IMG/VR virus record: IMGVR_UViG_2609460125_000009
Source: a virus
Taxonomy: Duplodnaviria > Heunggongvirae > Uroviricota > Caudoviricetes
Length of the DNA stretch: 64,000 bases
Strand: one strand, 5' to 3'
The position numbers were made by a program, and so were the translations under genes. Below are positions 40,005 to 57,562 of this stretch, one piece after another; the first letter of the stretch is position 1; each line of letters begins with the position of its first letter. The notes beneath the pieces were generated by a model, which had not been told where the DNA came from, ran no database searches, and saw only the letters and a program-made list of their open reading frames with translations.

Positions 40005-42344
40005 ATGGCAAAAGGAAAATCCGCACTGGCACTTGCTCTGAAAAAGAAAATCGGTAGCAACGACGAAATTCAGAAAGTAACTCATTGGATTGACACAGGC
40101 TTTCCTCCGTTAAACAAAGCTATTTCCGGTCGTTACGATGGCGGTTTCCCATGTGGTCGTATCGTAGAAGTATTCGGGCCACCAAGCGCGGGGAAATGTG
40201 TTACCGCAGACACCATGCTGCTGACGGAGCGTGGAATGGTAACAGTGAAAGAGTTGTTTGAGATTGAAGGGTACAAAGCGACATGCACTACTCGCGATGT
40301 AGAGCATAACGTTGGACTCATCAATGAAAATGGCGTGATAGAGAAGACCTCACACCTGACATGGAACAACCGTCGCAAATTCAAGCGTATTAAGCTGGCA
40401 TCAGGCGGTTATATCGAGGCTACGTTCCGTCACCCAATCCGTGTGGTTGACGACTTAGGTAATGTCGTCTGGCGACATGCTGAAAAAATCAGTGTAGGCG
40501 ACACGATTCCTTCAATGGTTGGCACACATCAATTCGGCGATCAGCACCTGGATGCCAATATCGCAAAACTGATGGGCTATTTAATTGCTGACGGATACGT
40601 GGCCTCTGAAAATTCAGTGAATTTTTCTAACACAGATCCTTTCATCAAGGATGAGTACTACCGCCTCATTTCGCTGGTATCAGACAAGATGCCAGTTACG
40701 AGAAAACATAACGGCTCGGAAGACCATGTGCTGTTTAGCAAAGAGGTGCGTTCGCTGCTTTTTAAAGAATATGGTCTGGAGTATGAGAAAGCTGCTGGCA
40801 AGCAGGTTCCGTTGAGTGTGCGTCGCGCCAATAGCGAGGCTCAAATTGCATTCCTTCGCGGCTACTTTGAGCTGGAATGCCACGTCAATGATGGTCGCTG
40901 CATTGAGGTTGTGAGCGCGAGTGGGCTGCTGCTACAGCAAATTCGCCTCATGCTCCTGAATCTGGGGATTACGTCAACTATCTCTGAAAAACACGTCGCG
41001 GGTTATGAAAATACATATTACCGGCTGTCATTCAGTGGCTCTAATTACGACCTTTTTCTGTCAACGATTGGTTTCGAATCTCCGGCACGTTTATCAGTGG
41101 CAACCAAACGGGACATTGGTTTTGACCGCACTTACTCAGGCTATGTTCCGCACATCAGCGGCTTAGTGAAATCACTCTACGAGTCGCTCACCAAGACCAC
41201 CCGTGAAGACTACGCTCTGGTAGACCACGTTATTGGCCGCGGCGATCGTGTCGGAATAGACAAACTGCGAGAAATCTATGTCTCCTTCATTGGCAGAAAG
41301 AATCGTTTTAACGAGCATCTGTTTGCACAACTGGCAGCGGTAATTGGCTCTAACTTGTTCTACGACGAAGTCGTGGCTATTGAGGAAGGTGAAGCACCAA
41401 CGTTCGACGTAGCGATGCCGGAAACACACTCTTTCTGGTCTAACGGGATTATCAGCCACAACACATTCCTTGCAACAGCAGCGATGATCTCCGCTCAAAA
41501 ACAAGATGGTCTGGCGGTATTCCTCGATCATGAAAACAGTTTTGACGTTGGCCTGGCTGTAGCCAATGGCCTGAACGCAGATGAGGATGACGGTCAGTGG
41601 GTATACAAGCAGCCAGATACCTTCGAAGACTCTGTAGAGTTGATCGGCACAATACTTAAATTGGTTCGTGATGAAGAGCTTATCCCCGAATCAGCACCTA
41701 TCTGTATCGTGGCTGACTCTCTTGCGTCTATGGTTCCGAACTCCAAAGCCGAGAAGTTCGAAAAGATGGCTGAAGGCACAGCCAAAGACAAAGATCAGCT
41801 AAACATGAACGACAATACGGCACTGGCTCGTGCGACGAGTGCGAACTTCCCTACTCTGGCTTTGTGGGCACGCAAATACAACGCCTGCATCATCTTCTTG
41901 AATCAGGTTCGCACAAAAATCGGTGTAATGTTTGGCGACCCTACTACGTCGCCAGGTGGAGATTCACCGAAGTTCTACGCTTCTGTACGTATCCGTCTTG
42001 GTGCATCGGTGATGAAGGATGGTAAAGAGAAGATCGGCCAGGACGTAGGCGCAGAATGCATCAAAAACAAAGTTGCACCACCGTATGGCAAATGCACCTG
42101 GAAATTCTACTTCGATCCTACTCGTGGCCTCGACGTTATCGAGTCGCTCGTCGAGTACATGCTGGAAGAAGGATACCTGCCAAAGAACGCCAGCGGTCGA
42201 GTAGAAATTGGTGACAAGAAATACACCAAATCACAGATCGTCGAGATGTATCGGGAGAAGCCACTAGCTGAAATCATTGCGGCTTTACAGGCAATCGACG
42301 ACCGGAGATCAAAAGACAATCCCACCGAGTCAGTAGAAGAGTAA
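40005..42344 (+). CDS. RecA-family recombinase precursor containing an intein in the Walker A motif
   Basis: N-extein ends GPPSAGK, C-extein begins TFLATAA, so splicing restores GPPSAGKTFLA; the C-extein carries RecA-like core motifs. Confidence 0.85.
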   Translation: MAKGKSALALALKKKIGSNDEIQKVTHWIDTGFPPLNKAISGRYDGGFPCGRIVEVFGPPSAGKCVTADTMLLTERGMVTVKELFEIEGYKATCTTRDVEHNVGLINENGVIEKTSHLTWNNRRKFKRIKLASGGYIEATFRHPIRVVDDLGNVVWRHAEKISVGDTIPSMVGTHQFGDQHLDANIAKLMGYLIADGYVASENSVNFSNTDPFIKDEYYRLISLVSDKMPVTRKHNGSEDHVLFSKEVRSLLFKEYGLEYEKAAGKQVPLSVRRANSEAQIAFLRGYFELECHVNDGRCIEVVSASGLLLQQIRLMLLNLGITSTISEKHVAGYENTYYRLSFSGSNYDLFLSTIGFESPARLSVATKRDIGFDRTYSGYVPHISGLVKSLYESLTKTTREDYALVDHVIGRGDRVGIDKLREIYVSFIGRKNRFNEHLFAQLAAVIGSNLFYDEVVAIEEGEAPTFDVAMPETHSFWSNGIISHNTFLATAAMISAQKQDGLAVFLDHENSFDVGLAVANGLNADEDDGQWVYKQPDTFEDSVELIGTILKLVRDEELIPESAPICIVADSLASMVPNSKAEKFEKMAEGTAKDKDQLNMNDNTALARATSANFPTLALWARKYNACIIFLNQVRTKIGVMFGDPTTSPGGDSPKFYASVRIRLGASVMKDGKEKIGQDVGAECIKNKVAPPYGKCTWKFYFDPTRGLDVIESLVEYMLEEGYLPKNASGRVEIGDKKYTKSQIVEMYREKPLAEIIAALQAIDDRRSKDNPTESVEE
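40197..41462 (+). mobile_element. intein with LAGLIDADG homing-endonuclease domain (422 aa) inside the recombinase gene
   Basis: Begins with Cys (CVTADTMLL, intein block A), ends with His-Asn before the extein Thr; internal LMGYLIADGY and FLRGYFELE motifs. Confidence 0.8.
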
Positions 42345-42348
42345 ACAC

Positions 42349-42374
42349 AAGGCGTCCACAGGACGCCTTTTTTA
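42349..42374 (+). terminator. rho-independent terminator
   Basis: GGCGTCC-ACA-GGACGCC followed by TTTTTT after the recombinase stop. Confidence 0.8.
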
Positions 42375-42437
42375 TCTCTTGAAAATATATAAGTGCTTAC
42401 TTATCATTTTTCACATAACAACCACATAGGAAAACAC

Positions 42438-42638
42438 ATGATCAAAATCTATCTATTGGCAGTAGCCACAGGCCTTTCAGTGGCTCTCATCTACGGATTA
42501 CTGGTTCCGTCGCTGATTTCTGCAAAGAGTGATTTGGCCGTCATGCTTGGAGTTCTCGTTGGTTTTGGCGCTCCAGTAATCGGTCTTATTGGTGGTCGTA
42601 AGTTTATTAACTCATTAATCAAAGCAAAGGGGAAATAA
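42438..42638 (+). CDS. small membrane protein (two predicted transmembrane helices)
   Basis: Conserved leader GGAAAACACATG; 66 aa, hydrophobic; directly upstream of the SPFH gene. Confidence 0.45.
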   Translation: MIKIYLLAVATGLSVALIYGLLVPSLISAKSDLAVMLGVLVGFGAPVIGLIGGRKFINSLIKAKGK

Positions 42639-42641
42639 GTA

Positions 42642-43472
42642 ATGAAGAAAGGTTTACTTGCAGTTGCTCTGGCGGCTATTTGCACAATGGGTCTTACTGG
42701 CTGTGATCGCGTGGAGCCTGGATACGTTGGCATCAAAGTAAACAAATTAGGTGAAGACAAAGGGATTGGTGAAGTGGTTGGCGTTGGTCGCCAATGGACA
42801 GGTCTTAACACCGAACTTTACGTATTCCCGACCTTCAAACAAATGAAGACCTACGACGAACCGTTCACATTCCAGATGAGTGACGGTACTGCTATTGGTC
42901 ACAAAATTGGCGTTGCGTATCTGGTTAATCGTGACAAGGTAACGACGGTGTTCCAGACCTATCGCAAAGGCGTAGACGATATCACCGAATCAGATCTGCG
43001 TCAGAAAATTGCCGACTCTCTAAACCGTTTGGCCAGCCGTATGACCACTGACTCATTTATCGACGGTGGTAAGGCACAATTGCTGGACAACGCACTGAAA
43101 GATATTCAGAAAGAGATGTCTCCGGTTGGTATTGAGGTACTGAGCCTGTCATGGGTTGGAAAGCCTGATTACCCAAAAACCGTCATTGAATCTATTAACG
43201 CCAAAGTAACGGCTAACCAGCGTACTCTGCAACGTCAGCAGGAAGTTGAACAGCGTAAAGCTGAGGCGAATATGCTACGTGAACAGGCTAATGGTGAAGC
43301 TGATGCTATCCGTGCTCGTGCGCAAGCAGAAGCAGACGCCATTCGTCTGCGCGGTGAAGCTCTGCGTCAAAACCCGAACGTTATGGAACTGGAAGCCATC
43401 AATAAATGGAATGGCCAGTTACCGCAGTACATGACTCAAGGGGCTAACACTCCTTTCATTACAGTGAAATAA
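42642..43472 (+). CDS. SPFH / band-7 (stomatin-prohibitin-like) lipoprotein
   Basis: Signal peptide with lipobox LTGC; SPFH-like core followed by an Ala/Glu/Arg-rich coiled coil (EADAIRARAQAEADAIRLRGEAL). Confidence 0.7.
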   Translation: MKKGLLAVALAAICTMGLTGCDRVEPGYVGIKVNKLGEDKGIGEVVGVGRQWTGLNTELYVFPTFKQMKTYDEPFTFQMSDGTAIGHKIGVAYLVNRDKVTTVFQTYRKGVDDITESDLRQKIADSLNRLASRMTTDSFIDGGKAQLLDNALKDIQKEMSPVGIEVLSLSWVGKPDYPKTVIESINAKVTANQRTLQRQQEVEQRKAEANMLREQANGEADAIRARAQAEADAIRLRGEALRQNPNVMELEAINKWNGQLPQYMTQGANTPFITVK

Positions 43473-43487
43473 CTCCCCTAAAAAGTT

Positions 43488-43514
43488 CAGGCGTCCAGTT
43501 GGACGCCTTTTTTA
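43488..43514 (+). terminator. rho-independent terminator
   Basis: GGCGTCC-AGTT-GGACGCC followed by TTTTTT; same stem sequence as the terminator at 42349. Confidence 0.8.
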
Positions 43515-43563
43515 TCGCAATTATCTTATTAAGAAAACAATTTGTTTAAAAGGATAAGAAAAC

Positions 43564-43989
43564 ATGACAGCTATTAAGAAACTCTACGATGCCGCAAACG
43601 TGGCTCTGGATGTTATTGATGATGAAGTAGCAAAAGGCTTTCCTGAACCTGATTGGGCGCATCAGCTACGAAACGCTATCGCAGAAATGACCCCACCAGA
43701 TCCAACCCCCGACGAGACAGACTGGCAGCGATTCATCCGTATGTACGCTCAGGAAATAGGTCCAACGCCAACGGCAGAGCAAGCAATGCTGCTGAAATAC
43801 TTCAAAGAGGCGGGGGAGGATTTACCAATTGATGACTCAGCATATTGGTTCCACTGCGCATGGCGTAAGTATGACGTGATATTCACACAAGGCATGGGGA
43901 GCAAAGATATGGTTGTGTGGCATCTACTCCATATAGACACAGCCGTTGACAGAGTTATTGAACAGTTTTTCCCTAAACAAGAAGATTGA
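43564..43989 (+). CDS. hypothetical protein
   Basis: Conserved leader AAAACAATTTGTTTAAAAGGATAAGAAAACATG; 141 aa. Confidence 0.5.
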   Translation: MTAIKKLYDAANVALDVIDDEVAKGFPEPDWAHQLRNAIAEMTPPDPTPDETDWQRFIRMYAQEIGPTPTAEQAMLLKYFKEAGEDLPIDDSAYWFHCAWRKYDVIFTQGMGSKDMVVWHLLHIDTAVDRVIEQFFPKQED

Positions 43990-57476: not shown

Positions 57477-57562
57477 CATTTTTTTATCTGTCTGGTCTTG
57501 TTCTCTCAATGAATGTAAACTCACACGATGAATAAGTAATTACTTATCTTTGTGAGGTTTTT

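Follow-up and report, generated by a model that had tools for sequence, protein, structure and literature searches.

Cages built from SPFH/band-7 proteins have recently become a structural paradigm, represented by HflK/C, prohibitin, erlin, stomatin and flotillin. HflK/C, prohibitin and erlin all act together with membrane quality-control machinery. In the QmcA-YbbJ pair, the small membrane partner is itself built into the cage (title of PDB entry 8z5g), with 26 heterodimers (PMC13086221). The locus described here lies in a stretch of 64,000 nucleotides (nt) from a virus of the Caudoviricetes (IMG/VR record IMGVR_UViG_2609460125_000009), called the window throughout, and consists of a gene for a hairpin-like membrane protein of 66 amino acids (aa) followed by a gene for a 276-aa SPFH lipoprotein. 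SPFH proteins are already known as a kind; what is new is the predicted lipid-anchored and periplasm-facing form, its dedicated and sometimes fused hairpin partner, and the setting of both in a regulated phage cassette. The identity of the SPFH protein and its partnership with the hairpin are proposed with high confidence. The two genes are:

42438 to 42638, + strand: hairpin-partner gene, 66 aa, ATG start (open reading frame, PHROG 1130, ratio of non-synonymous to synonymous substitution rates (dN/dS), positional conservation, charge distribution)
42642 to 43472, + strand: SPFH/band-7 lipoprotein gene, 276 aa (Pfam Band_7, PHROG 200, AlphaFold2 (AF2), Foldseek, dN/dS)

A preliminary description of this DNA had reported a 66-aa two-helix membrane protein and a 276-aa SPFH lipoprotein, and both open reading frames (ORFs) were confirmed at these positions on the + strand. 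Its further proposals on the anatomy of the locus were borne out as well. Coupling to the small membrane protein is seen in the 3-nt gap between the genes, in the position of a hairpin ORF 5' of the SPFH gene in most viral loci and in natural fusions of the two; an expression unit of its own is seen in a predicted promoter (42379-42407) and in terminators on both sides; and the long charged coiled coil is, in the AF2 model, a single 65-residue helix (179-243).

The larger protein matched Pfam Band_7 (PF01145) with 106.2 bits against a cut-off of 23.6 (E=2.6e-30, residues 23-209) and, from end to end, PHROG 200, annotated 'lipoprotein' (E=3e-108). It is composed of the following parts:

42642 to 42707, + strand: signal peptide (residues 1-20), lipobox LTGC with Cys21, and Asp22 at position +2 (read from the sequence; Cys invariance)
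42708 to 43268, + strand: Band_7/SPFH domain, residues 23-209 (Pfam; AF2 alpha/beta core 21-176)
43176 to 43370, + strand: long charged helix, residues 179-243, then a short helix and the K-W-[ND]-G-x-L-P motif (AF2, alignments, Foldseek coverage)

The predicted lipidation site, L18-T19-G20-C21, fits the pattern [LVI][ASTVI][GAS]C and is followed by Asp22. Cys21 was invariant both in a 60-sequence alignment that extended to relatives of 30% identity (A1) and in a 13-sequence alignment (A2), and C-D-R was the dominant form among the 120 closest homologues. An Asp at position +2 is the classical signal for inner-membrane retention in E. coli (Lol avoidance), and the predicted lipoprotein satisfies this rule. 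The label 'outer membrane lipoprotein' also occurred among homologue annotations; for the enterobacterial clade, Asp+2 speaks against such a location. About one third of the representatives of 50%-identity clusters displayed no lipobox recognisable by regular expression, and some of them carried an N-terminal hydrophobic helix instead, which from its sequence would be suited only to anchoring in the inner membrane.

The AF2 model, a single-chain prediction built from the 60-sequence alignment, reached a mean predicted local distance difference test (pLDDT) score of 90.1. It displayed a signal helix, an alpha/beta SPFH core (21-176), the 65-residue helix (179-243), a further helix (245-255) and a flexible tail. 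A Foldseek search of the PDB aligned the whole chain with cage-forming SPFH proteins (probability 1.00, 13-18% identity), including the long helix, which is the equivalent of the cage wall helix (CC1). The Foldseek E values were:

HflK/HflC (7vhq): 4e-14 (best)
Prohibitin: about 1e-13
Erlin: about 6e-13
Stomatin: about 6e-11
Flotillin: about 2e-9
QmcA-YbbJ: 1.6e-7

At the sequence level, HflK was the only PDB match (E=0.007). The equivalog models for HflC and HflK (TIGR01932 and TIGR01933) remained far under their cut-offs, with 30.2 against 134.4 bits and 18.7 against 159.4 bits, respectively, and so did those for flotillin (PF15975, 19.9 against 27 bits; FloT model NF058507, 16 against 700 bits). 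Given these scores, the 13-18% identity and the detection of HflK alone in the PDB, the 276-aa protein represents a separate SPFH subfamily without a solved member. Its most conserved features are two segments. The first, x-V-x-P-G-x-V-G-[IV]-K-V, stands right after the Cys and couples the SPFH domain closely to its anchor. The second is the C-terminal K-W-[ND]-G-x-L-P motif, in which W256 was invariant in A1, and W256, G258 and P261 in A2. Annotations of homologues included 'lipoprotein', 'SPFH domain protein' and 'putative band 7 lipoprotein'. Misleading labels were widespread and read 'serine protease', 'transposase fusion protein' or 'putative transposase' (H38, H65, H70, H80; P0023, P0099); no such domains were found in these proteins, and the labels were treated as propagated errors.

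The 66-aa protein matched PHROG 1130, annotated 'membrane protein', over its entire length (E=5e-25). In it, a short loop (PSLISAKSD) joins two hydrophobic helices, and a basic tail of 13 residues follows. Over 20 family members, K/R and D/E residues numbered 23 and 1 in the N-terminus, 12 and 14 in the loop, and 66 and 15 in the C-terminal tail; following the positive-inside rule, this distribution indicates a hairpin with both ends in the cytoplasm (N-in/C-in) and a periplasmic loop. Neither a Pfam family at E<=0.1 (the sole listing being DUF1427, E=0.76) nor an NCBIfam model matched this protein. An NfeD identity of the partner was rejected, since there was no family match and the 66 residues are taken up by the helices and the tail, which leaves no room for an OB-fold. 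The partner represents a hairpin family of its own, in which the loop motif P-x-[LM]-[IV]-S is conserved (for instance LLVPSLISAKSD, LLPNMISSNS and LLPRMISSDSS). No holin match was obtained in PHROG or Pfam, though generic class II holin features are present, and the SPFH pair was not part of a lysis cassette in any of the genomic contexts inspected.

The association between hairpin and SPFH protein was conserved far beyond the window. Of the 80 viral loci retrieved, most had a two-helix ORF of 66-78 aa that ended within a few bases of the SPFH start, and such an upstream ORF was present even in viral loci beyond tblastn recognition. With an eight-sequence hidden Markov model (HMM) of the hairpin, the partner was also found in the lytic N4-like phage S6 (gp044, 57 bits) and the rV5-like phage PVP-SE1 (gp116, 36 bits). 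A second set of 80 genome loci was derived from the 13-sequence alignment and takes in only relatives with G[YNH]VGIKVN; in many of these, a hairpin was found or plausible 5' of the SPFH gene, over a range from Enterobacterales to Caulobacter, Acidobacteria, Binataceae, Bacteroidota (Hymenobacter, Chitinophagaceae) and bacteria of the candidate phyla radiation.

Natural fusions were further evidence for a partnership. Many distant relatives of 330-390 aa are in-frame fusions in which a hairpin is followed by a basic linker, a hydrophobic segment, a Cys and the SPFH domain. The hairpin HMM matched, in register and with E<1e-3, the N-terminal ~55 residues of 13 long SPFH relatives (332-392 aa), together with the close fusion P0021, and none of the ~250 short forms of that set was matched in its signal peptide. 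Genomic DNA of four unrelated lineages, a Doudnabacteria metagenome-assembled genome among them, displayed in-frame fusions directly. Free-standing and fused hairpins could be aligned over a gap-free core in which P24 and S28 were invariant. The evidence for fusion comes from local HMM and alignment work: when the 66-aa protein was the query of word-indexed searches, whether singly or as a profile of 20 sequences, only enterobacterial relatives came back, with no fused forms among them. Because of both the gene fusions and the adjacency, a physical 1:1 partnership of hairpin and SPFH protein is very likely, and the order of the fused parts, together with the positive-inside distribution, predicts that the SPFH domain faces the periplasm. 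A lipobox-like Cys, now internal, is retained at the junction in fusions P0125, P0135, P0144, P0146, P0152, P0166, P0168, P0169, P0186 and P0191, and at loci L095, L103, L105 and L139. Such a fusion may be a polyprotein that is cleaved and lipidated at an internal signal-peptidase II site, or an internal start may also be used. One representative (P0130) carries the hairpin at its C-terminus instead.

Both genes were under purifying selection, with dN/dS values of 0.01-0.03 for the SPFH gene and 0.13-0.22 for the hairpin gene; the latter values led us to reject positive selection on the fast-diverging partner. A GTG start at 42393, which would give an 81-aa version of the hairpin, was likewise rejected, as it falls within the conserved promoter and ATG 42438 has an AGGAAA ribosome-binding site. 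Compared with L047 (5797-6828) or phage Cyrano (L001:9105-10136), the SPFH gene of the window displayed ~99.6% nucleotide identity and a synonymous divergence (dS) of about 0.02 (0.016 in one pair), whereas the adjacent hairpin genes were only 78% identical, with a dS of 0.74. Such a disparity within the same pairs of phages indicates a recombination breakpoint between the two genes, an exchange of hairpin alleles, and different histories of the two genes within the phage-plasmid lineage.

The pair is carried by a discrete accessory element, delimited as follows:

42350 to 42376, + strand: left terminator copy, AGGCGTCC-ACA-GGACGCC-TTTTTTATC, which ends the intein-containing recA and marks the left cassette boundary (terminator scan, junction alignment)
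43489 to 43516, + strand: right terminator copy, AGGCGTCC-AGTT-GGACGCC-TTTTTTATC (terminator scan, pattern count, junction alignment)
42377 to 43516, + strand: accessory cassette of 1,140 bp, comprising the promoter, the two genes and the second terminator copy (empty-site comparison)

Rho-independent terminators were predicted at 42349-42369 and 43489-43508, and the common stem and tail (AGGCGTCC...GGACGCCTTTTTTATC) occurred only twice in the 64-kb window, against 0 expected. A synthetic query from which the 1,140 bp between the repeats had been deleted matched E. coli plasmid NZ_CP010144.1 over 100% of its length, in a single piece and with 98.7% identity. At least 80% of this query was covered in one place by seven plasmid records, among which the junction was inspected in NZ_CP010144.1 only. 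There, base by base, one terminator was joined straight to the downstream flank and the promoter was absent. As judged from the duplicated terminator and this empty-site junction, the promoter, the two genes and one terminator copy form a discrete insertion/deletion cassette, and the replicon exists without it. With a predicted promoter and a terminator of its own, and present in one and absent from another of two collinear genomes, the element has the anatomy of a moron.

The region was 94-99.9% identical to E. coli phage-plasmids of about 100-114 kb and to the isolated phages CMS-2020a, PhiR41_1 and Cyrano, and its backbone falls into the group related to pHCM2 and Yersinia pestis pMT1, as judged from recA-flank homology in 675 plasmids. 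In Cyrano, the genes 5' of the cassette are annotated as UvsY, gp32-like single-stranded DNA-binding protein, exonuclease and RecA, and those 3' of it as small hypothetical proteins, a Cra-like protein and RepA. The recA-like gene of the window (40005-42344) encodes a 779-aa protein with an intein bearing a LAGLIDADG domain (Pfam RecA, Intein_splicing and LAGLIDADG_3), and some related plasmids label it merely 'LAGLIDADG family homing endonuclease'. The gene right 3' of the cassette (43564-43989) encodes a DUF7238 protein (E=5e-38) and is retained in the empty-site plasmid; a 303-aa SPFH-DUF7238 chimera (P0018) in one Logan contig is probably a deletion or an assembly artefact. The cassette, with an SPFH protein of 94-95% identity and the hairpin present, was also recorded on ~108-kb contigs of Y. 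pestis NCTC5923 (L086) and Kluyvera sp. STS39-E, and on contigs of 92 and 58 kb from Kluyvera sichuanensis and Buttiauxella gaviniae (Kluyvera and Buttiauxella loci L083-L085); this phage-plasmid type therefore crosses genera of Enterobacterales.

Two features precede the hairpin gene:

42379 to 42407, + strand: sigma-70-type promoter, TTGAAA-17-TATCAT, with a 10/12 consensus match
42389 to 42404, no strand assigned: 16-bp near-palindrome ATAAGTGCTTACTTAT, overlapping the spacer and the -10 element, a candidate operator of a phage regulator

Cassette alleles with a coding-DNA identity to the window of only 63-82% have the identical promoter, which is thus more conserved than the genes it drives. 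The palindrome consensus, ATAAGTAnTTACTTAT, gave 32 strand matches in the window at <=3 mismatches, against 1.7 expected. They correspond to 16 distinct sites (6441, 10708, 11825, 16453, 16573, 23529, 30190, 37134, 37599, 42389, 44012, 48138, 52822, 57532, 63151 and 63814, the one at 57532 being perfect), all of them intergenic in a window that is 90% coding and most of them 5-130 nt 5' of a gene start on the + strand. Among the genes that they precede are several of DNA metabolism, and those aligned with uvsY, ssb, nrdA and thyX of Cyrano. A related 12-nt match was found at 27534, 33 nt 5' of an ORF resembling a helix-turn-helix repressor (27115-27501). From this distribution we infer that the palindrome is an operator or a promoter element of a phage regulator, and the set looks like the operator network of such a regulator, in a layout comparable to that of the dispersed C1 operators of phage P1.

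The position of the pair in other phages pointed in a similar direction. In lytic phages, it was found among early or DNA-metabolism genes, and in the P2-like phage P88 it lies inside the early operon, between cox and the replication gene. In the P1-like phages RCS47 (L048:5784-6828) and Ro157c2YLVW (L168), it is located between the tRNAs and ban. The same slot of reference P1 (L169, 69.4-71.0 kb), within the C1-controlled ban operon, holds the unrelated genes plp and upl and the TerB-like tciABC. With the SPFH pair in the former and these genes in the latter, the tRNA-ban slot of P1-like phages is a swap site for accessory genes related to envelope or stress. Identity of the pair with plp and upl of P1 was rejected: reference plp measures 378 nt (125 aa) and lies on the opposite strand, and the SPFH pair replaces these genes in the slot. 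In reference P1, plp, upl and tciABC were non-essential by CRISPR interference (PMC10695390). Taken together, the balance is slightly in favour of early co-regulation of the cassette with early and DNA-metabolism genes of the phage. Expression of the pair as a constitutive lysogenic-conversion gene is unlikely, since the promoter bears the palindrome, the P1-like and P2-like copies sit in early operons and other carriers are strictly lytic.

Family members were widespread. At E<=1e-3, 2,816 SPFH relatives were found among representatives of 50%-identity clusters, 195 of them at E<=1e-30, and 411 IMG/VR contigs encoded a relative. The SPFH protein was carried by 283 of the 5,426 complete E. coli genomes (~5%), at 198 plasmid and 101 chromosomal locations. 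Of 50,697 phage records, 377 gave a tblastn match at E<=1e-8, with Gram-negative hosts throughout among the records listed. The phage carriers included N4-like, LUZ24-like, rV5-like, FelixO1-like, phiCbK, crAss-like, Lak and Shiga toxin (Stx)-converting phages, many of them lytic. A phage-only family was rejected, since distant chromosomal copies sit among ordinary housekeeping genes: none of the 140 neighbours of 18 such copies was a phage hallmark gene. The module is accordingly, as judged from these contexts, a cellular invention that was captured by Gram-negative phages repeatedly, or once and then spread.

The preliminary description had left the role in the phage unestablished, and rightly so: the searched literature holds speculation only (PMC10269572; PMC8540360). 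Our favoured reading, to which we give a probability of roughly 0.4 as a whole, is that of an early-expressed, two-subunit periplasmic SPFH scaffold that insulates or stabilises the membrane and possibly excludes other phages. The lipoprotein would be lipid-anchored in the outer leaflet of the inner membrane, with its SPFH domain in the periplasm, and would oligomerise, by way of the long helix and the conserved C-terminal W-x-G-x-x-P tail, to a ring or cage of the HflK/C type. The part of this reading with good support is a complex of both proteins at the inner membrane, the SPFH domain lying on the periplasmic side. A ring or cage is suggested by analogy with every solved SPFH protein of the same architecture, by the fold and by the very strong purifying selection; an oligomer in the inner membrane that faces the periplasm is rather probable. 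In this assembly, the lipoprotein would form the wall and the cap, and the hairpins would contribute what a lipid anchor lacks, namely a palisade across the membrane and basic tails in the cytoplasm, the invariant Pro/Ser hairpin loop probably docking on the membrane-proximal face of the SPFH domain. Since its promoter bears the recurrent intergenic palindrome of the phage, the pair would probably be switched on together with replication and nucleotide-metabolism genes, early in lytic development. In the most speculative step, the cage would fence off patches of inner membrane and keep the membrane sealed and energised during phage replication, and/or close the inner membrane to DNA from superinfecting phages. 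Insulation or stabilisation of the membrane is favoured because of the early co-regulation, the envelope location, the presence in lytic and temperate phages alike and the dispensability of the cassette. A protective or exclusion role, taken by itself, is a tentative proposal on the doubtful side. Lysis timing, one of the three options put forward in the preliminary description (with membrane remodelling and superinfection exclusion), is the least supported, since the pair was never seen in a lysis cassette.

Several observations weigh against this reading. Instead of serving as a repressor operator, the palindrome might be the target of an activator or an element of the promoter. The LUZ24-like phage TL displayed no recognisable hairpin partner, and the neighbour in phiCbK was a different multi-helix protein. 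In some homologues from lytic phages, position +2 is occupied by Glu or Tyr (C-E-R in PVP-SE1, C-Y-E in S6), and the Asp+2 argument is therefore limited to the enterobacterial clade. As distant cellular homologues sit among housekeeping genes, the molecular function is a generic one, and membership of the family carries no implication of a phage-specific role such as exclusion. Proteins known to exclude superinfecting phages usually evolve fast and are specific to phages; the SPFH protein, by contrast, is extremely conserved. Neither protein showed homology to known superinfection-exclusion (Sie) proteins in PHROGs or Pfam, and a known defence system was rejected, as no PADLOC-DB v2 match at E<=0.1 was obtained for either of them or for the two downstream proteins. 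Finally, no experimental work on a phage SPFH lipoprotein was found in the searched literature. A bolder form of the scaffold reading, in which phages of Gram-negative bacteria deploy the pair (fused in some lineages and possibly processed at the lipobox) as a generic early inner-membrane shield that blocks competing genomes and/or neutralises membrane-disrupting host effectors of abortive infection, appears improbable; if true, it would account for the occurrence of PHROG 200, which ranks with the commonest accessory families of phages, in both lytic and temperate phages.

Among the other explanations, mimicry of HflK/C survived best, albeit at a low probability. The phage cage would then enclose the host FtsH or compete for it, thereby altering the turnover of membrane and regulatory proteins of phage or host, such as CII-like lysogeny regulators, LpxC or SecY. 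HflK and HflC were indeed the best matches in both sequence and structure, and the predicted topology, with an N-terminal anchor and a periplasmic SPFH domain, is theirs as well. The action of HflK/C, prohibitin and erlin with quality-control machinery also counts in its favour, and a role in this direction has been the subject of speculation for phage SPFH proteins in two papers (PMC10269572; PMC8540360). Yet the protein is no closer to HflK/C than to prohibitin or erlin (about 17% identity), its scores with the equivalog models are far under the cut-offs (30 against 134 bits for HflC, 19 against 159 for HflK), it has a dedicated partner of its own, and it is common in strictly lytic phages, which take no lysogeny decision.

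Still less likely is a gated effector, that is, a holin-like or pore-forming hairpin held inactive by the SPFH cage, whose release would set lysis timing or trigger abortive infection against competing phages. The generic class II holin traits of the partner (about 66 aa, two helices, N-in/C-in, basic C-terminal tail) are compatible with it, and SPFH proteins do regulate channels elsewhere, as with stomatin and the acid-sensing ion channel (ASIC) or stomatin enclosing aquaporin-1 (PDB 9zd2). So is the location of the accessory cassette in a variable slot that holds TerB-like tci genes in reference P1. However, the hairpin matched neither holin entries of PHROG or Pfam nor PADLOC, the pair was absent from lysis cassettes in the contexts inspected, and a structural subunit accounts better than a lethal effector for the covalent 1:1 fusions and for the housekeeping surroundings on chromosomes.

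The pair might also be a housekeeping scaffold that stems from the host and travels along as a passenger, near-neutral or of general benefit, which contributes to membrane homeostasis without a phage-specific target. This is consistent with the cellular homologues, which display the same two-gene layout among housekeeping genes, and with the existence of at least one natural cassette-less plasmid and six further candidate records. Multiple SPFH deletions in Pseudomonas aeruginosa, moreover, had no pronounced phenotypes (PMC13086221). We consider a mere passenger to be a marginal case, given the very strong purifying selection in phage lineages (dN/dS 0.01-0.03), the retention of the protein by 377 phages that belong to unrelated types, small lytic podophages with tight genomes among them, and a conserved promoter tied into the phage's own motif network.

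The weakest candidate is a lipoprotein for lysogenic conversion or virulence, expressed by the prophage, exported in outer-membrane vesicles (OMVs) and acting on the animal host through Toll-like receptors 1 and 2 (TLR1/2) in the manner of PM0222, a 25-35 kDa HflK/C-like prophage protein of Pasteurella multocida that occurs in OMVs, activates TLR1/2 and whose deletion attenuates virulence (PMC9872710): this precedent, the moron-like anatomy with its predicted promoter and terminator and the occurrence in Stx-converting phages speak for it. This role is nonetheless very improbable: PM0222 is only a possible member of the subfamily, Asp+2 predicts retention in the inner membrane, the promoter bears the regulatory palindrome of the phage, and both free-living bacteria and lytic phages that infect environmental bacteria (Caulobacter, Stenotrophomonas, Rhodobacter) have the pair.

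The cassette is small and self-contained, and it comes with natural empty-site controls, covalent fusions and a minimal 66-aa partner. It is thus a tractable and convenient system for two questions, namely what an SPFH cage encloses and why phages want one. Should it prove to be an exclusion or membrane-protection device, a function would be assigned to a very large phage family, with relevance to host range in phage therapy and to phage-plasmid ecology. Should it prove neutral, it would be informative on auxiliary genes in phages.

As to known systems, the annotations seen for PHROG 200 and PHROG 1130 record neither a link between the two families nor a fusion. The P. multocida protein PM0222 resembles the 276-aa protein in being prophage-borne, of SPFH type and of similar size, and it was the only prophage SPFH protein with experimental data that we found (PMC9872710). 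Its reported virulence role through OMVs and TLR1/2, in contrast, would leave unexplained why lytic phages of environmental bacteria carry the pair.

The superinfection-exclusion proteins Imm and Spackle of T4, Llp of T5, SieA of P22 and gp15 of HK97 are small envelope proteins that block superinfection and are dispensable for growth, and several of them are early. Like these, the proteins described here are small inner-membrane or lipoprotein products of accessory genes. There is, however, no relation in sequence or fold. These exclusion proteins are phage-specific and fast-evolving, and none of them is an SPFH scaffold.

The likeness to the HflK/HflC-FtsH system of E. coli (PDB 7vhq, 7wi3 and 9cz2) lies, according to the model, in the succession of SPFH core, long wall helix, short helix and C-terminal cap segment, and in an N-terminal membrane anchor with an SPFH domain that is periplasmic (here by prediction). 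The differences are a single SPFH gene instead of a K/C pair, a predicted lipid anchor instead of a transmembrane helix, the dedicated 66-aa hairpin, and an identity of about 17%.

With the SPFH-NfeD pairs (QmcA-YbbJ, 8z5g; YqiK-YqiJ; FloT-YuaF of Bacillus subtilis; PH1511-PH1510 of Pyrococcus), the locus shares the layout of a two-gene operon that includes a small membrane partner. Yet the partner is without NfeD or OB-fold here, its gene is located upstream and it is sometimes fused N-terminally, and while QmcA faces the cytoplasm, the 276-aa protein is predicted to face the periplasm.

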